Positions 7,685 through 42,380 of a stretch of DNA of 64,000 nucleotides are shown here, piece after piece. Position numbers and translations under genes: made by a program. The stretch's first letter is position 1, and the number at the start of each line of letters is the position of its first letter. This DNA comes from an uncultured Candidatus Marinamargulisbacteria bacterium (lineage in GTDB: Bacteria; Margulisbacteria; Marinamargulisbacteria; SXXA01; JAHFDB01): the NCBI GenBank assembly GCA_964517775.1, contig CAZFCP010000008.1, positions 23,369 through 87,368 of the forward strand, given 5' to 3'. Below the pieces are notes generated by a model that worked only from the letters and a program-made list of their open reading frames with translations, was not told the DNA's origin and made no database searches.

Positions 7685-9493
7685 ATGCACAAAATCCTTG
7701 CTGTACCCTTCAGACATCCCAAAAAAATCTATCCAAATGGTCACGCTTATTTTGAATCTTCTTTTAAGTTTATTAGGCTCATGTTGTCTTGCTTTAGAGC
7801 CAGGTTCCTGGCCATCCCGATTCACGCAGACATTGTTTATCCCTTAAATCCCTTTGTTCGTGCCCTTGATAACTGTTTAAACAGCCTTCATGTGGCCCGA
7901 TCTAATCCCACAACTATTAGCAGTACTACAGAGTGTGGTACTCATTTAAAAATCTGCCTGGATGAACTTGCAGGTTTATTGAAGCCCGGGAATTTGGATT
8001 TTCCTCCAACACTGGTAACCGAGCTTATGTCTACTGTACTCACTGCGTTGCAACAACATGGATTAAATGATGAACAGTGCAGGGGCTTTTTTTTGGAGGT
8101 TTTGAGATCGAGCTATCGTCCGTTCCATTCTGGCTATGAACAGCTGATAAACACATGTTGTACGGTATTGAACTCTCCTGATTTTGAACAGGCTATTAAG
8201 GGCTACAGGGATACGTTGGACAGCCAATTGAACGATTTTTTGGAATCAATCTTCACACAAAATTCCGAGGATGCCTGCACGGCTTTGATTAGATTCTACG
8301 ATCGTGTTCACAACCAACATGAAAAGAACGCCTTTTTCGGCTACATGGTTGCAAACGGCCTTCTTACTGATGTTGAGCGCAATCCCTGTCAGTTTGAGGT
8401 TGAAAATCTCATTTTACAGGATGTCATGAGTCAAAGACCGGTTTTGAATGCTTCATTATTTATGGTGGTTATCAGGCAGCTGACAGAATCCAAGTGTCAC
8501 GATCCGCTTAGTTTTTTGGTTGTTTTCGATGAGTTATGCCAGGTTCTTCCTAACAGAAACGTTTTGAAAAATGAGTTTTTTGGACGATTATCCTCAAAGA
8601 TGCAGTCTGCCGTTTATTACGAATTGTTGAAAAGCCCTAAGCAGGAGCAAAATAAACCGTTGAGGCGCTTTTTTAAACAAACAGGTGTTATCCCACATCA
8701 GATTACACCCGATGGTTTTTTAATTCCCAATCCTCCTGTAAAACCAAGTCCACGTTCCACGCCTGTTAAACGAACTTTTTCAATGGCCAGCCAAACAGAG
8801 TTGCAGGCAAGTCTTATTGCTAAAAGCATTCTTCAGGCTCCTTTTTGTGACACGGAGGCTATTCATATCAAATTAAGAAGTCTCAATAGCGAGCCTTTAA
8901 ACACCGTACTGGATACGTTGAGGCAAACACATCGAACTCTCGAAACGGCCTTGCATTCTGATGGACCCTCATCGTCTGCCTTACCTCCGTTTTCCCTTGA
9001 ACGTTATGTGCCTTTGCTCTGTACATCACATGCTGCAACGCTGCAGGTGTATAACCATGGCGTTAGCATTGTTTACTCCATGTTGTCGACTATGTTTTCA
9101 ACTCAGGAGTCTACTCTTCAGGCCTGTTATAAACGTTACATTCAAGACCCCTTTTCCAGTATTCTAGCCGTTATGAGTCGAATGGTTCAGAAAAACAGTT
9201 TAGACAGGGTAGAGCAGCTGATTGGTAATGGACAGTTTCAGGATGCGTTACCTTTGTTGCAAGGTCTTGTCGCTATTGAATCGGGGTCTTCGATTGTTGT
9301 GCCCCTTCATAACCTGCTCACACGGTATATTGGACTTCCAGATCTTTTGGGGAATACATCGTCTTCGTCATCATCCATGACTTTGGAACAATTTAAAGTG
9401 GAGTTTTTAAGGCAATTGGGGACGGTTAAGCGACAATTGGGGGTTGGTGATGTTGTTGAAAGTGTTCGGGAGGAGATAGTGATGAGGGAGTAG
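7685..9493 (+). CDS. Orphan hypothetical protein, effector-like (Pro/Ser-rich linkers)
   Basis: 602-codon ORF, helical composition, PNPPVKPSPRSTPVKRTFS and poly-Ser stretches; no family recognised. Confidence 0.75.
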   Translation: MHKILAVPFRHPKKIYPNGHAYFESSFKFIRLMLSCFRARFLAIPIHADIVYPLNPFVRALDNCLNSLHVARSNPTTISSTTECGTHLKICLDELAGLLKPGNLDFPPTLVTELMSTVLTALQQHGLNDEQCRGFFLEVLRSSYRPFHSGYEQLINTCCTVLNSPDFEQAIKGYRDTLDSQLNDFLESIFTQNSEDACTALIRFYDRVHNQHEKNAFFGYMVANGLLTDVERNPCQFEVENLILQDVMSQRPVLNASLFMVVIRQLTESKCHDPLSFLVVFDELCQVLPNRNVLKNEFFGRLSSKMQSAVYYELLKSPKQEQNKPLRRFFKQTGVIPHQITPDGFLIPNPPVKPSPRSTPVKRTFSMASQTELQASLIAKSILQAPFCDTEAIHIKLRSLNSEPLNTVLDTLRQTHRTLETALHSDGPSSSALPPFSLERYVPLLCTSHAATLQVYNHGVSIVYSMLSTMFSTQESTLQACYKRYIQDPFSSILAVMSRMVQKNSLDRVEQLIGNGQFQDALPLLQGLVAIESGSSIVVPLHNLLTRYIGLPDLLGNTSSSSSSMTLEQFKVEFLRQLGTVKRQLGVGDVVESVREEIVMRE

Positions 9494-9515: not shown

Positions 9516-9555
9516 CATAGCTACATAGCTACATAGCTACATAGCTACATAGCTA
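9516..9555. repeat. Tandem repeat (CATAGCTA)x5
   Basis: Five exact 8-nt units read directly; they abut the left end of the element at 9553-9786. Confidence 0.95.
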
Positions 9556-9786
9556 CAGACTACCCCGTCAGCTGCGCTGCCACCCCTTCTGGGAAGGGGA
9601 ATTTTTGTTGATTCTATATCTGTTATCACTCTAGTGTCACCCCAGCGGAGGCTGGGGTCCAGGCTGTTTTTATTCAAACTGGATTCCAGCCACTGCTGGA
9701 ATGAGACAGCATCATAAATGCAATCACAGTTGTTAAAATCCCCTTCTCAGAAGGGGTGGCAGCGCAGCTGACGGGGTAGTCTGTAG
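9553..9786. mobile_element. Nested palindromic MITE/REPIN-like element, copy 1
   Basis: 52-nt outer inverted arms 9553-9604 and 9735-9786 (2 mismatches) enclose inner 27-nt inverted hairpin repeats 9636-9662 and 9679-9705. Homologous to 27175-27425 in the opposite orientation. Confidence 0.85.
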
Positions 9787-9797
9787 TTGTGAGGTTG

Positions 9798-9878
9798 AAG
9801 GTGCCATGAAGGTGCCACCAATGAAGGTGCCAGGGTTCTAACCGAGAAGAGGTGCCAGGGTAAATTAAGGAGGTACCC
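9798..9878. repeat. Degenerate AGGTGCCA(GGGT) direct repeats
   Basis: AAGGTGCCA at about 9798, 9809 and 9824, GAGGTGCCAGGGTAAATT at about 9850, GAGGTACC at about 9870. Confidence 0.7.
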
Positions 9879-13185: not shown

Positions 13186-14056
13186 GATTCCGGCACCCGC
13201 ACTTGGGCTTTTACTGGGGGCTTTGGGAATCTTGTGTTTTAGTTTGACTGTGCCCTTAACGAAGGTTGCGCTTGAGGGGTTTTCGCCGTTATTTATTGCT
13301 ATCGGACGAGTCAGTATTGCGGGAACGTTGGCGGCATTGCTGGCTGTTTTATCCGGTAAAAGCTGGCCGGAAAGACGCCACTGGCCATCCATTTTTATTA
13401 TTTCGGCGGGCATTTCCATAGGGTTTCCGGTGTGCCTCAGTATGGCTTTAAGTCAAACCGGTGCTTCTCATGCCGGGCTGGTGATGACGATTATTCCCTT
13501 GTTTACGGCTATTGTTGGCTCGTTTATTACAAAGACAAAACAAAGCATGTTGTACTGGACACTGACCTTTCTGGGCTGTCTGGTGATGCTGGCCTATGTG
13601 ATGTGGAACAGCGGCCTTACGCTTGTACCTGCGGATGGCTGGTTGCTTGTGGCTTCCATTGCAGCCTCCATTTCCTACAGTGTAGGTGCGCGACTTACAA
13701 AGGAAATTGGCGGTTTGAACACCATTTCCTGGGCCTTGATTTTTATTCTGCCGCTCACAATCCCCTGTTTTTTAGGGTTGTTGTATGTTTATCATCCCAT
13801 TCATCATCCGTCGTTTGCTGCCATAGGCTCTTTTTTATACCTAGCGCTGATCAGTCAGTTTTTGGGATTTGTGCCCTGGTACTCGGGTCTTCATCTGGGA
13901 GGGATTGCTAAAGTATCCCAAATCCAGCTTCTTCAAACTTTTTTTACCCTTATTTTCTCTTATTTTTTGTTGGGAGACCGCATCAGCTGGCATGGATGGG
14001 TTGTAGCTGTCATTATTGTTTTGATTATCGTCATGATTAAAAAAATAAAGGATTAG
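13178..14056 (+). CDS. DMT/EamA-family transporter
   Basis: About 10 TM segments in two EamA repeats; GGIAKVSQIQLLQTF. Confidence 0.9.
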   Translation: MRRIPAPALGLLLGALGILCFSLTVPLTKVALEGFSPLFIAIGRVSIAGTLAALLAVLSGKSWPERRHWPSIFIISAGISIGFPVCLSMALSQTGASHAGLVMTIIPLFTAIVGSFITKTKQSMLYWTLTFLGCLVMLAYVMWNSGLTLVPADGWLLVASIAASISYSVGARLTKEIGGLNTISWALIFILPLTIPCFLGLLYVYHPIHHPSFAAIGSFLYLALISQFLGFVPWYSGLHLGGIAKVSQIQLLQTFFTLIFSYFLLGDRISWHGWVVAVIIVLIIVMIKKIKD

Positions 14057-28350: not shown

Positions 28351-29844
28351 ATGGGTATTTTACGTAGCATAATGCAGTGGCTGTTATGTGTGGTTTTGTT
28401 TGGATACTTTATCCTTTTTGGTTGGGCAACAAATTTGAACTGGGATCTCAACCAGCATGTGGGCATGGTAGATAGTTTTTTGAAAAATGGGAGCTTTTAT
28501 TCCGGGATTACTCATCAGTTTTTTCCTGAATCGGCTTATTTCCCCGGAGTGTCTTTTTTAGGTTATTTTTTTCATTACTTGGGGTTTTATGATATCAGGT
28601 TCCCATTAATTGTTACTGCGTCTTGTTTTGGGATGATCATGATTGCATTGCTTGTGCACTGCGCTTTTATACTTTTTGATGTTCCTAAGTGGCTAACAAC
28701 GACTTTTATTTTAGGCTGGTATAGTTTGGGTGCTTTTGAAGGTTTTGAAGGTTATATTGATTATTTAAAAGAGTTTAAGCCGGATACAGCTTCACTTGTT
28801 TTTGGGATTTTAGCTTTTTTACTTGCGAAGAAAGCTTCTTTTTTTTCTGAACAGAAACAGAGTGAAAAAGAGATGTTCTGGTGGTTTTTATGTGCACTAA
28901 GTTTGTGTTTATCGTTACTTTTTAAGCAGCAAGCTTTAGCCTTTTTTATAGCCTTTTTTTTGAGTGCTTTATTTGACTCTTCCTTATCACTTTCTGTAAG
29001 AAAAAAGCTTATTATTGTTTCGGGATTGTCTTTTTTTATGGCTGTTGCCATTCTTATGCAGATTCCTAATAGTTTTTTTGGAACTTTTTTTGTGATGTCT
29101 AAGCATCCGTTATCTATTTATTGTGGGTTAAAATCTCTGTATGTATTTTTTACTAAGTCCAAAACAATGCTGTATAGCATTCCTTTGCTTTTTCTTGTCA
29201 TTAAAGGAGTTAGAGCTCCTCATTTTTTTGGTGAAAAATCGTGGATTTTTTTATCATGTTCGTGGATGTTTTTTTCATTACTATCTGCTTTTAAAGAAGG
29301 AGGTAATATAGGTAATATTGAAGTGGGGGCTCTTGTATTTATTCCAGCTGTTTTAGGATTGATTTATAAAACTGTTTTTGATTCTCAGACAGAATTTTAT
29401 CATAAAAAACATGTTCAGTTTTTTTTGTTTCTTTTTTTTGGATTACTCCTATCCAGAGTTTTATTTAATACAGATTCAAATGAACAGCATGTATACGGAC
29501 TGTGGAAAAAAATTCAATACAATACGTCTAAAGAAACCGTTACACTAGAATTTCTAAAGCCGTATTCGGGTTCTAAAGCTCTTATTGATGCTGATATTTA
29601 TCCTATAGCTAAGCAGGCAAATCTTTTAGTTATTTCAGATGTTATTACTGCTTTTCACTACCATATAGCGGGTATAAAGCCCGATTATGTTGATCAGGCT
29701 CTTTTACGCAAGGAATTCGATGTTGTTTATGTGTTAAAAGATTATAGGAGAGATGCAATTATAAACAGAACCTTATTAATAGAACATTATTCGCAAATTC
29801 AGACTCCACCGGGTTTTATAGGGTACCTCTGGGAAAAACGTTAA
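28351..29844 (+). CDS. Polytopic membrane protein, GT-C (ArnT/PMT-like) glycosyltransferase candidate
   Basis: GAGGA RBS before ATG 28351; more than 10 TM segments, YFPG, KPD and FKQQ motifs; visibly AT-rich; convergent with the GT2/GtrA operon. Confidence 0.7.
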   Translation: MGILRSIMQWLLCVVLFGYFILFGWATNLNWDLNQHVGMVDSFLKNGSFYSGITHQFFPESAYFPGVSFLGYFFHYLGFYDIRFPLIVTASCFGMIMIALLVHCAFILFDVPKWLTTTFILGWYSLGAFEGFEGYIDYLKEFKPDTASLVFGILAFLLAKKASFFSEQKQSEKEMFWWFLCALSLCLSLLFKQQALAFFIAFFLSALFDSSLSLSVRKKLIIVSGLSFFMAVAILMQIPNSFFGTFFVMSKHPLSIYCGLKSLYVFFTKSKTMLYSIPLLFLVIKGVRAPHFFGEKSWIFLSCSWMFFSLLSAFKEGGNIGNIEVGALVFIPAVLGLIYKTVFDSQTEFYHKKHVQFFLFLFFGLLLSRVLFNTDSNEQHVYGLWKKIQYNTSKETVTLEFLKPYSGSKALIDADIYPIAKQANLLVISDVITAFHYHIAGIKPDYVDQALLRKEFDVVYVLKDYRRDAIINRTLLIEHYSQIQTPPGFIGYLWEKR

Positions 29845-30437
29845 GGTTTCCAGATCGGAATGTTATGCATTTTCGTGCAAATGGCATCGATCTGAAGCCT
29901 ATTTTGGTTCAGGTAGTCTCTGTATACGACGATATCATTCGGTCTTCCCTGAAGCTCAGGAGACACGAGACAGAGCTGAAATCCAGCCTCTTTTAAGCGT
30001 GAAAATGTATCAGGAGTCAGTGGCAGTTTTGTAAAACAATCGACCCACACCCATTTTACTTTCCCTTTTAGGGCAAGTATCGTATCCAGACCTTCATATT
30101 CGGAAAAACGAATGGCCGTATTGGATTCCTGAAAGTGAGTAAGAAGGTGAATAATCATTGGAAATGAAGAATCCAGAAAAAAATAAGAGGTAATCCCGTG
30201 TTTTTTTAAAAGCTCGAGGATAGGGATTTCAATACGTTCACTTTTGATATTTAAAATAATGAGTTTGTGGGTGTAATGGCCAAGAAACTCGTCCAGATCC
30301 TCTCCGTCTTTAAAAGGATCATGTTGCAGGATGAGTTTTCCATCTTTTCCGTCACGAATATCCACTTCAATCCCGTAATGAGACGGTACGGTTTTTAAGG
30401 CCTCAATGGTATTGATTCTGTGCGCGATGTAAAGCAT
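29841..30437 (-). CDS. GDPD/PLC-like phosphodiesterase-fold protein
   Basis: IAHRIN...GIEVDIR...LQHDP catalytic-type motifs of the GDPD/PI-PLC TIM barrel. Confidence 0.7.
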   Translation of the reverse strand: MLYIAHRINTIEALKTVPSHYGIEVDIRDGKDGKLILQHDPFKDGEDLDEFLGHYTHKLIILNIKSERIEIPILELLKKHGITSYFFLDSSFPMIIHLLTHFQESNTAIRFSEYEGLDTILALKGKVKWVWVDCFTKLPLTPDTFSRLKEAGFQLCLVSPELQGRPNDIVVYRDYLNQNRLQIDAICTKMHNIPIWKP

Positions 30438-41024: not shown

Positions 41025-41035
41025 GGATACGACTT

Positions 41036-41409
41036 GTCATTCCAGCGTAGGCTGGAATCTAGTTCAAAACTTAGAGTCTAGAAAATCGATTGATAAATCT
41101 TTCCACTCTGGATTTTGATTTTCAATTAAATTTATTTTCCAAGCTCTTTTCCATGTTTTAATTTGTTTTTCCCTTGTTATAGCTGCTTGAATATTATGTC
41201 CGTACTCATAGTAAACGAGTGTTTTAATCCCATATTTTTTAGTGAAGCCCTCGATTAATCCTTGCTGGTGTTCATAAATTCTACGAGTTAGGTCAGATGT
41301 TACTCCTGTGTATAAGGTGCCGTTTTTTGAGCTTGCCAAGATATATACCCAGTATGTTTTTTCCATTTAGAGCGAAATTATACTGGATTCCAGCCTGCGC
41401 TGGAATGAC
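41036..41409. mobile_element. GIY-YIG nuclease cassette bounded by inverted hairpin repeats
   Basis: GTCATTCCAGCGTAGGCTGGAATCTAG (41036-41062) and the inverse GTCATTCCAGCGCAGGCTGGAATCCAG (41383-41409), 25/27 identical, tightly enclose the gene. Confidence 0.85.
41064..41366 (-). CDS. GIY-YIG nuclease (YhbQ/UPF0213-like)
   Basis: YWVYIL...TLYTGVT.DL.RRI.EH, AITREKQIK.W.R.WK..LIE..NP.W.DL. Confidence 0.95.
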   Translation of the reverse strand: MEKTYWVYILASSKNGTLYTGVTSDLTRRIYEHQQGLIEGFTKKYGIKTLVYYEYGHNIQAAITREKQIKTWKRAWKINLIENQNPEWKDLSIDFLDSKF

Positions 41410-41495
41410 AAACAAAAGGCTGGAATGGCAAACGAGAGTGGTATGGTAAGTAAAAGGTTTGCATGGCAAATAAAAGGCTAGAATGAGAAACGATA
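41400..41495. repeat. Decaying 18-20 nt tandem tail derived from the repeat end (CTGGAATGAC...)
   Basis: Units CTGGAATGACAAACAAAAGG / CTGGAATGGCAAACGAGA / GTGGTATGGTAAGTAAAAGG / TTTGCATGGCAAATAAAAGG / CTAGAATGAGAAACGATA. Confidence 0.7.
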
Positions 41496-41565
41496 CATGG
41501 AGAAGCTTAATTCTGAGTATGATTTATAGATATTCCCGATCGAGAATATTTTTTGAAAAACACCT

Positions 41566-41638
41566 AAAAACACCATGAAAAAATACAACAGCACTATAAG
41601 ATTTTCATGGTGTTTTTCTAAAATTCCACCATGAAAAT
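41566..41638. repeat. Three copies of CACCATGAAAA (two form a 16-bp inverted repeat)
   Basis: AAAAACACCATGAAAA 41566-41581, TTTTCATGGTGTTTTT 41602-41617, CACCATGAAAA about 41627-41637. Confidence 0.7.
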
Positions 41639-41650
41639 TGTATAATCAAA

Positions 41651-41706
41651 AAAATCCCCTTCCCAGAAGGGGTGGCAGCGCAGCTGACGGGGTAGTCTGT
41701 AGCTAT
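41651..41706. repeat. Solo outer arm of the nested element
   Basis: AAAATCCCCTTCCCAGAAGGGGTGGCAGCGCAGCTGACGGGGTAGTCTGTAGCTAT, near-identical to 9735-9786; overlaps the fdhD-like stop codon. Confidence 0.9.
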
Positions 41707-42380
41707 AAATACTGCGTATACCGCGTCCCCCTCGCAAATCCAATAATCGTAATATTATTATCCTTCGCATTTTGATACGCCTTATCCGTAGGCCCTAACC
41801 GAGAAATCACCATTCTCGCGCCAATCGCTTTGGCCTCCTCAACGATCCACGCGTCGATTTTTCCCGATAACATCAGAATCGAAGGCGCTGGCTGCTCCTT
41901 GGACACACAAAGTCCAAGCGTTTTATACCAGGCGTTTTTACGGGATAAATCCTCTGCAAAATAAACAATCTGTTTCGGGGTAGCCAGGGCGGCACTGTGG
42001 CTGATCGAAACATCCTTATACAACATGGATTTTTCCTGAAACGAGGCTGTTAGCTGAAAAATCACAGCCGCCGGTAAACTGAGAACCTCCGTTTGAGCCT
42101 GTTGTTGTTGCTGCTGTTGTTGCTGACCCGATTTCAACGACACCGAACACAGCGGACTGTCCACGGTTATCTTTTCAATATCCTGCATTCCTGAAATAAA
42201 GGCTTTGCTTTTTAAATAGCCAACCATCGCTTCTTTTTCCAGGTTTGGGGTCAATGAAAAAACCTGATTTTTCACGCCGTTTATAACCAGTTCCAGCTCT
42301 TTTTCCATGCCTAAATTTTCATTGCTTTTACGGTGTTTGTTGTCATCGTGTTTGATGACGGTTACGGTTCTCATCCACAT
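41703..42380 (-). CDS. fdhD: FdhD/NarQ-like protein, divergent, with poly-Gln
   Basis: EKELELVING, TP..EKEAMVGYL.S, HSAAL, EDLSRKNA..K..G, SGKI, TIIGFARG; 9 Gln codons at 42099-42125. Confidence 0.8.
   Translation of the reverse strand: MWMRTVTVIKHDDNKHRKSNENLGMEKELELVINGVKNQVFSLTPNLEKEAMVGYLKSKAFISGMQDIEKITVDSPLCSVSLKSGQQQQQQQQQAQTEVLSLPAAVIFQLTASFQEKSMLYKDVSISHSAALATPKQIVYFAEDLSRKNAWYKTLGLCVSKEQPAPSILMLSGKIDAWIVEEAKAIGARMVISRLGPTDKAYQNAKDNNITIIGFARGTRYTQYL

Follow-up and report, generated by a model that had tools for sequence, protein, structure and literature searches.

Palindromes within palindromes: two hairpin-repeat families, associated with GIY-YIG and DUF559 endonuclease genes, nested in intergenic DNA of a Marinamargulisbacteria contig

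The 64,000-nt stretch of contig CAZFCP010000008.1 analysed here (the window) carries two palindromic elements, composite A at positions 9548–9791 and composite B at 27164–27436, in each of which a pair of short inverted hairpins is enclosed by a longer pair of inverted arms. By profile match, the inner hairpins are decayed copies of the SRM repeats, which flank genes of small GIY-YIG nucleases, and one such gene lies in the window at 41064–41366. The outer arms belong to a family of two-hairpin repeats that flanks genes of DUF559 (Vsr-like PD-(D/E)XK) endonucleases in many phyla. Both composites are non-coding and intergenic, and all outer halves and inner hairpins of the window are confined to three intergenic gaps. 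A preliminary description of composite A had proposed that two distinct repeat families are nested here, and this is upheld: the arms that bound 9548–9791 enclose a 27-nt hairpin pair of another family. The feature is real, and it is probably a non-autonomous mosaic of two unrelated hairpin-repeat families, each of them paired with a small endonuclease gene of its own.

The outer arms of composite A (9548–9604 on the plus strand and 9735–9791 on the minus strand) are inverted, 57 nt long and 93% complementary, with 130 nt between them; the preliminary description had recognised the inverted arms but drew them slightly short, at 9553–9786 and 52 nt. The core half-motif of the left arm (9560–9602) matches the family profile at E = 3.9e-10 (nhmmer), and the core of the right arm (9739–9779) is 98% identical to the left arm. 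In order, the left arm consists of CTA-CCCCGT, hairpin 1 (CAGC-TGC-GCTG, 9569–9579), CCA, hairpin 2 (CCCCTTC-TGG-GAAGGGG, 9583–9599) and AATTTTTG. At 9516–9557 the unit (CATAGCTA) stands five times in tandem, an apparent expansion of the distal end of this arm.

The inner pair of composite A consists of GTCACCCCAGCGGAGGCTGGGGTCCAG (9637–9663) and CTGGATTCCAGCCACTGCTGGAATGAG (9680–9706), 27 nt each and 16 nt apart. Delimited by the SRM profile, they are a degenerate left hairpin, TGTCACCCCAGCGGAGGCTGGGGTCCAG (9635–9662, plus strand; E = 2.3e-5), and a degenerate right hairpin, TCTCATTCCAGCAGTGGCTGGAATCCAG (9679–9706, minus strand; E = 1e-6). The left stem is CCCCAGC/GCTGGGG, compared with ATTCCAGC/GCTGGAAT in the GIY-YIG cassette of the window, and since pairing is kept its changes are compensatory; in the right hairpin the tag G is replaced by C. 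The 16-nt spacer between the two, GCTGTTTTTATTCAAA (9663–9678, or 9664–9679 by the 27-nt definition), occupies the place held by the GIY-YIG gene in a full cassette.

Composite B has arms of 74 nt (27164–27237, plus strand, and 27363–27436, minus strand) that are 92% complementary. The core of the first arm is at 27191–27235 (E = 1.2e-14), and that of the second, at 27365–27409, is 100% identical to the partner arm. Hairpin 1 is the variant CAGGC-TCT-GCCTG, and the arm extends outward as GCCAGGGTAAAATTTAA. The interior (27238–27362, minus strand) is homologous to that of A in reverse orientation and contains two decayed SRM hairpins, at 27266–27293 (plus) and about 27307–27338 (minus). As single-stranded DNA, composite A is predicted to fold at −89.3 kcal/mol (z = −16.7) and composite B at −94.2 kcal/mol (z = −16.8), each into one long stem with the small hairpins as its cap.

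The recurrence of the unit in inverted form, claimed earlier, was confirmed end to end: the reverse complement of B aligns to A over its full length, and the interiors are 72% identical with B reversed, compared with 51% in the other orientation. The flanks of A and B cannot be aligned, so the pair is not a larger segmental duplication; and because the interiors are homologous at unrelated loci, either the block was copied at least once or the module was inserted twice. A third repeat, GCCAGGGTAAA(A)TT, is present at 27174–27187 (plus), 27413–27426 (minus) and 9854–9867. Inverted copies of it adjoin composite B at either end, adding a third palindromic layer, and one copy stands 65 nt to the right of composite A amid short GAAGGTGCCA repeats.

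The GIY-YIG gene (41064–41366, minus strand) encodes a single-domain protein of 100 amino acids in which PF01541 (E = 3.5e-15) spans residues 5–79, with no other domain. On one side of it lies an intact SRM, TGTCATTCCAGCGTAGGCTGGAATCTAG (41035–41062, plus), and on the other a second, inverted, TGTCATTCCAGCGCAGGCTGGAATCCAG (41383–41410, minus). The published SRM pattern, HGTCWYN(0-2)YYVSBRHN(0-5)WNVSBRGN(0-2)RNCYNB (Chenal et al. 2025), has exactly these two matches in the 64 kb, against 0.12 expected, and both sequences nearly agree with the NTS consensus CGTCATTCCCGCGMAVGCGGGAATCYRG. At 41399–41485, a 20-nt unit repeated 4.4 times in tandem, GCTGGAATGGCAAACAAAAG, comprises the 3′ half of the right-hand SRM and its flank.

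Small single-domain GIY-YIG proteins of this kind, of about 94–100 amino acids and named Ssn, are site-specific single-stranded-DNA nucleases. Inverted hairpin repeats lie on either side of their genes, NTS (CGTCATTCCCGCGMAVGCGGGAATCYRG) in Neisseria and SRM more generally, and the Neisseria and Wolbachia proteins bind hairpins of the SRM type, cutting single-stranded DNA immediately 5′ of the tag (Chenal et al. 2025, Nat Commun, PMC11893778). Judged by its sequence and flanks, the GIY-YIG gene of the window is likely to encode an Ssn-family nuclease for single-stranded DNA sites, with the inner hairpins as its cognate repeats. A search for the exact protein sequence gave no record; there are thousands of homologues with 60–70% identity across phyla. 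The nearest ones with readable DNA (64–72% identity) are flanked by NTS-consensus hairpins and have no outer motif. The only match in the PDB is a distant one, the UPF0213 protein 1zg2.

The inner pair of composite A had been described as the repeat that flanks the GIY-YIG gene, and the hairpin does recur at the two SRM sites of the cassette. Both hairpins of A miss the strict SRM pattern, as we read it the left at one loop position and the right at the tag G, and match the SRM profile (E = 2e-5 and 1e-6); over A and B together the profile values range from E = 1e-6 to 0.017. In sequence, the pair is a gene-less doublet of the TGTC/CGTC-tagged SRM found beside the GIY-YIG gene, and its tags face outward as they do at 41035–41410, so that the earlier term "empty GIY-YIG cassette", for the geometry of a cassette without its gene, is a fair description. 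The doublet (aligned region 9616–9726) also scores 30.4 bits (E = 1e-4) against Rfam RF02625, WsnRNA46, a Wolbachia small RNA whose model consensus is itself an inverted doublet of SRM-like hairpins; with a gathering score of 65.3, it is not a member of that family. At gathering thresholds, Rfam found only a tRNA in the window. The inner layer is known biology (Chenal et al. 2025), and through it the Ssn/SRM system gains a representative in a little-studied lineage.

The repeat unit of the outer layer is a half-motif of about 45 nt: (A)CTA-CCCCGTCAG, hairpin 1, CTG-CCA, CCCCTTC-nnn-GAAGGGG (CCCCTTCnnnGAAGGGG) and AAT. Its two ends are called here the C-end (CTACCCCG) and the G-end (GGGGAAT). 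A strict pattern of 26 specified bases, taken from a window arm and run on the genome collection, matched 100 loci. The 80 loci listed represent about 29 differently named taxa, among them Ignavibacteria, Kapaibacteria, Cyanobacteriota, Desulfobulbus, Thiomargarita, Piscirickettsiaceae, Rickettsiales, Francisella, Saccharibacteria, Endomicrobium, Atribacteria, Nitrospira and Marinamargulisbacteria, and across these the motif is conserved nearly base for base. Both hairpins covary. Among 110 distinct 45-mers, 98.3% of cells are paired, against at most 55% when the partner is slid, and the 109 double-change cells were reached in 0 of 500 shuffles; the strict search pattern had left hairpin 1 unconstrained and did not enforce the choice between T-A and C-G in hairpin 2. 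A shorter sister half, CCA-CCCCG, hairpin 1, CA-CCCCTCC-nnn-GGAGGGG-AAT, is common. The motif had 0 matches in viral contigs, and a phage-borne origin was dropped.

Hairpin 1 of the outer motif (for example 9566–9582) comprises CGTC, a 5-bp hairpin and CCA, and so has the tag and tail of the CGTC-type REPs and SRMs on a shorter stem. The resemblance may point to a distant kinship of the outer and inner families, or to nucleases that recognise similar features. The motif also forms regular tandem arrays (L056, 49–247; L096, 57–255; L172, 1832–2117), repeating every 80 nt in a Prochlorotrichaceae metagenome-assembled genome and every 42 nt in L172, where the array follows a DUF559 gene; in their spacing these recall a CRISPR array. 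In locus L182, half-motifs stand in frame within an FdhD gene (peptide NPPSQKGWQTKSDGVV) and within an ABC-transporter gene (1534–1573 and 13904–13941). At the matching place, the FdhD of the window has a poly-glutamine run (42099–42125).

Within the window, 5 sites match the outer core pattern, where chance predicts 0.00, and 7 match the inner hairpin pattern, where it predicts 0.01; profile searches returned exactly 5 outer halves together with 5 clear inner hairpins and 1 very weak one. All five outer arms match the profile built from 110 distinct family members (E = 1e-14 to 6e-9). The fifth, overlooked in the preliminary description, is a solo half-motif of the A sub-variant on the minus strand (site C), detected by both pattern and profile, with its core at 41653–41695 and reaching 41707 with its extension. 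That distal extension, ATAGCTACAGA (41697–41707), is the same as in the left arm of A, and the G-end of the solo arm points toward the GIY-YIG cassette, 245 nt away.

The preliminary description had tentatively placed similar repeats beside DUF559-type genes, and this was strongly borne out. Of the 100 motif-selected loci, 13 have a DUF559 gene next to the motif, and in five differently named loci (L012, L041, L042, L070 and L074) the motif continues directly into the DUF559 open reading frame (ORF; PF04480, E = 1.3e-27). For the reverse test, metagenome loci were fetched by DUF559 peptide patterns only (LDFDRQK[IV] and E[IV]DGxSH[DN]xK; n = 80, some of them near-duplicates of one another), the motif pattern having been fixed beforehand. 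The motif was present upstream of the gene in 54/78 loci (69%), downstream in 51/77 (66%) and on both sides in 41/75 (55%), and these loci held 176 motifs in 212 kb, compared with 0.0 in dinucleotide shuffles. Upstream and downstream variants are paired (TCC/TCC 30, TTC/TCT 10, TCT/TCT 5), and DUF559 protein similarity is 0.706 within a flank variant versus 0.666 between variants (permutation p < 0.0005). Since the variants pair and the proteins are more alike within a variant, flanks and proteins are inherited together. The outer copies of the window are gene-less members of this DUF559-flanking family.

The DUF559 proteins keep the invariant nuclease-core residues D..E.DG..H, and their only solved relative is 3hrl, an uncharacterised protein of N. 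gonorrhoeae. Flanking repeats are not described in the literature found on DUF559, the coverage of which is incomplete, and the outer family is provisionally called undescribed; nothing relevant was found in the literature on small dispersed repeats and Vsr-like palindromes. In the same five loci as above (for example L042, 6980–7610), the whole DUF559 cassette and its flanking motifs lie in one ORF, and the position of the cassette within a DNA-methyltransferase-like gene is the same in five differently named taxa (..VFEN/SPSLKGWQAKPDGVV..DUF559../KHLPIDTKYF..IYIDPPFN). This arrangement could reflect either homing, with a conserved gene as the target, or the transfer of an entire fusion.

Pairs of outer half-motifs take two main arrangements. 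With C-ends facing, 49 of 67 pairs are spaced 201–700 nt and are gene cassettes; with G-ends facing, 32 of 52 are at most 30 nt apart, forming gene-less dimers whose halves abut at the centre GGGGAATTCCCC. In both window composites the G-ends face each other, across interiors that measure 140 and 135 nt by the motif pattern, and the SRM module therefore lies at the place of the dimer centre and not at the gene place of the usual cassette. The idea that a composite is a canonical DUF559 cassette minus its gene was rejected, the arm orientation being opposite, and is revived only for a rare type. Among DUF559 cassettes, the orientation of the composite was found only in L072 and L175. In L072, from a Marinamargulisbacteria metagenome-assembled genome, the DUF559 gene lies within 47-nt arms that are 100% complementary and have their G-ends inward, and the outer flank reads GGGGTAG/TCTGT, as at window sites A and C. 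Since the organism of the window is probably related to its Marinamargulisbacteria lineage, L072 is the best candidate for a gene-bearing counterpart. That relationship is indicated by IleRS, for which the nearest named hits are Candidatus Margulisiibacteriota at 59–62% identity and the best of all hits reaches 77%; a cyanobacterial origin, which the octamer tandem repeat had suggested, was set aside on these grounds.

The inner and outer arms proved to be distributed independently in other genomes, which counts against the earlier interpretation, although they are co-located at 3/3 sites within the window. In the motif-selected loci there were 7 SRM matches in 664 kb, two or three of them near an outer motif, and in the DUF559-selected loci 1 in 212 kb; GIY-YIG homologues occurred, weakly, in only two of all these loci, and the GIY-YIG-selected loci had no outer motif. 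The naive probability of three shared intergenic gaps out of three is 0.003–0.02, a figure that deserves little weight because A and B are non-independent and the elements enlarge their own gaps. Because the families are independent elsewhere, the nesting is a local feature of this genome and not a rule of either family.

As to the origin of the composites, the account to which we tentatively lean, and which falls a little short of what we would call probable, is that of a REPIN- or BIME-like module derived from an L072-type DUF559 element, its cargo now being an SRM doublet, with A and B as young members of two old sub-families. The single-stranded unit would fold into a stem of about 57 bp capped by two SRM hairpins, and copying might take place in trans, or through the repair of cuts made by the cognate nucleases; as copying of this sort leaves no target duplication, none would be expected. 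Use of either nuclease by the composite, which the preliminary description had suggested, is inferred.

Several observations weigh against this account. The arm sub-variant differs between A and B and yet is common to both arms within each copy: A has CAGC-TGC-GCTG as hairpin 1 and ..CTACAGA as distal extension, B has CAGGC-TCT-GCCTG and GCCAGGGTAAAATTTAA, and identity within a copy is 98% (A) and 100% (B) even at positions that vary in the family. Simple block copying, without sub-families or arm homogenisation, is not predicted to give such copy-specific variants. No direct target-site duplication was found at the ends of A or B. The composite interior was not found again in metagenome contigs (0) or viral contigs (0), so that only two copies are known; the scan pattern, GGTCCAGGCTGTTTTN{5,9}AACTNGATTC, was derived from those two copies, which makes the miss weak evidence. 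With no target duplication, no further interior copies and unequal arm sub-variants, the earlier proposal that the composite moves as one unit was not demonstrated. The arms of most DUF559 cassettes are opposite to those of the composite, as the gene-spaced CTACCCCG-facing pairs (49/67) show; neither tblastn nor a profile search at maximum sensitivity detected a DUF559 gene in the window; and the DUF559 link itself covers one sub-family (at least 60% identity to the query), not all of PF04480. Finally, the inner SRMs are degenerate, and therefore Ssn may no longer cut them.

A strict empty site was also not found for A or B. At B, the search through homologues of the neighbouring NicO-family gene gave a best hit of 72% identity, whose contig (L101) is not syntenic. 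For the solo arm, an approximate empty site is available in L182, the nearest relative found, whose IleRS is 77% identical to that of the window. There, FdhD is followed directly by the CACCATGAAAA hairpin, and the solo arm, which in the window intervenes, is absent from the orthologous place. A hairpin, AAACACCATGAAAA..TTTTCATGGTGTTT, lies downstream of FdhD in both the window (41560–41650) and L182 (1960–2010), and in the window the solo arm stands between the FdhD stop codon and that hairpin, giving an approximate comparison of a filled with an empty site. The G+C content dips to 0.345 at 28001–30000, compared with about 0.43 elsewhere, over two ORFs (28339–29844 and 29841–30437) without Pfam matches.

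The pattern of arm variation is what would be expected if the two composites had arisen separately, an SRM-doublet module of about 130 nt, on this view the unit that moves or recombines, having entered the centre GGGGAAT/ATTCCCC of two different, pre-existing outer palindromes, which when single-stranded would expose that centre as a loop. Arms that are 98–100% identical within a copy, non-conserved positions included, and different between copies, around interiors that have diverged by 28%, fit such independent insertion. In its favour, too, the outer family is most often arranged as abutted G-end-facing dimers (32 of 52 such pairs), a third palindrome, GCCAGGGTAAAATTTAA, has copy B at its centre, and H. 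neapolitanus offers a precedent, with CGTC-1 dimers inside palindromes of 41 bp (Di Nocera et al. 2013, PMC3733652). However, in the metagenome and viral contig scans the module was never seen without outer arms, nor outside the window, the abutted dimers elsewhere mostly join two different half types where the window arms are of one type, and an insertion mechanism for Ssn is not known. We regard this origin as possible, though on the doubtful side. Movement of a 244-nt unit by cut-and-paste, as a miniature inverted-repeat transposable element in the strict sense, would make the outer arms terminal inverted repeats recognised by a transposase. Their length and near-perfection, the two copies with homologous interiors at unrelated intergenic sites and the gene-bearing L072 with the same arm orientation all accord with it; we nevertheless think it quite improbable, given that neither A nor B has direct target duplications, that DUF559 is a Vsr-like nuclease and no known transposase, that no transposase is present among the window ORFs tested, that the arms occur mostly as REP-like solo halves, abutted dimers and tandem arrays, and that the arm sub-variants of A and B are unequal.

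A role for the host must also be weighed, in which the composite would not be selfish DNA but would be kept for its service to the flanking genes, as an intrinsic terminator that works in both directions, a hairpin that stabilises mRNA or the locus of a small RNA. At 3/3 sites, hairpin 2 and a T-run lie in sense orientation 31–90 nt past the upstream stop codon: in the left arm of A (to 9599, plus) for the gene at 7685–9493 (plus), in the second arm of B (27384–27368, minus) for the NicO-family gene at 27438–28172 (minus), and in the solo arm (41653–41707, minus) for FdhD at 41703–42380 (minus). The sub-threshold resemblance of the inner doublet to WsnRNA46 (30.4 bits against 65.3) points the same way. 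Yet most family members elsewhere have no T-run and continue as GGGGAATTCCCC, the motif also stands in frame within coding sequences, and its nucleotide identity across phyla and linkage to nuclease genes indicate mobile DNA, so that a host function is an unlikely account of the element; a terminator role would fit later co-option and leave the origin unexplained. From the position of the hairpins and T-runs, it is plausible that one arm per site has been co-opted as the intrinsic terminator of the upstream gene. Assembly errors can yield palindromes, and only two copies of the composite are known; a chance palindrome, an assembly artefact or a segmental duplication would nonetheless have to produce 5–7 pattern matches against 0.00–0.01 expected, between unrelated flanks and with the same motifs present in hundreds of independent assemblies, and can be set aside as most improbable.

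Compared with known systems, the inner layer resembles Ssn/SRM and the dRS3 repeats of Neisseria (Chenal et al. 2025, PMC11893778) in its small single-domain GIY-YIG gene, the inverted SRMs on both sides and the intergenic hairpin copies. It differs in that the A and B copies are gene-less, degenerate and enclosed by a second family, and in its host, which is probably a relative of Margulisiibacteriota and not a proteobacterial symbiont. With the CGTC-tagged REPs (Di Nocera et al. 2013, PMC3733652), it shares the TGTC/CGTC tag, an 8-bp stem starting with AT, a 4-nt loop and the formation of hairpin dimers, including a dimer within a longer palindrome (CGTC-1 of H. neapolitanus, 41 bp). No copy of that enclosing palindrome free of its insert was found (Di Nocera et al. 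2013, PMC3733652), whereas the enclosing palindrome of the window is an independent, cross-phylum, DUF559-linked family. The interleaving of dRS3/SRM hairpins with other repeat families in intergenic mosaics is known from the NIMEs (Di Nocera et al. 2013, PMC3733652), although the window has a strict palindrome within a palindrome in place of an array, and another partner family.

The REP/BIME-RAYT and REPIN systems (Nunvar 2010; Bertels and Rainey 2011, PMC3116915) likewise have a nuclease-type gene between inverted hairpin repeats, and there, too, the repeat occurs as solo units, inverted doublets and clusters, with doublets that fold into long structures and no target duplication. The partners in the window families are GIY-YIG and DUF559 PD-(D/E)XK nucleases, not an HUH Y1 transposase. 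On the motif strand the hairpins are preceded by CTAC, which places GTAG 3′ of them on the other strand, and this is not the REP position. The nesting itself has precedents in the BIMEs, the NIMEs and the CGTC dimers of H. neapolitanus. By trait only, the outer motif also recalls another group of repeats, through its in-frame copies in the FdhD and ABC-transporter genes of L182 and in the methyltransferase-like gene of five loci. That group, the Rickettsia palindromic elements, is reported to insert in frame within protein-coding genes (Ogata et al. 2000); all copies in the window are, by contrast, intergenic.

The Ssn/SRM system was described only in 2025, and the result for the outer layer is the more useful half of this analysis, as DUF559 is a large family without an assigned function. 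One of its sub-families is now linked to a specific structured motif, which is a concrete candidate substrate for testing its role as a nuclease. The same motif may lie behind many of the "REP-like" palindromes, and behind puzzling in-frame peptide insertions (..SPSLKGWQAKPDGVV..), that genome annotations contain. It is conceivable, if rather uncertain, that DUF559 genes and their two-hairpin flanks form an unrecognised cross-phylum partnership of nuclease and repeat, in which the nuclease would read the palindromic junction of half-motifs and sit inside it. Such a partnership would be a third system beside RAYT/REP and Ssn/SRM, with a gene placement like that of a homing endonuclease in its own target, and the gene-less dimers would be spare targets or relics. 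If so, the junctions would also capture Ssn/SRM elements, and palindrome centres would be shared insertion sites at which layered palindromes are built stepwise. The composites of the window offer a natural case of the interplay of two such systems, and of how nested palindromes are built and tolerated.

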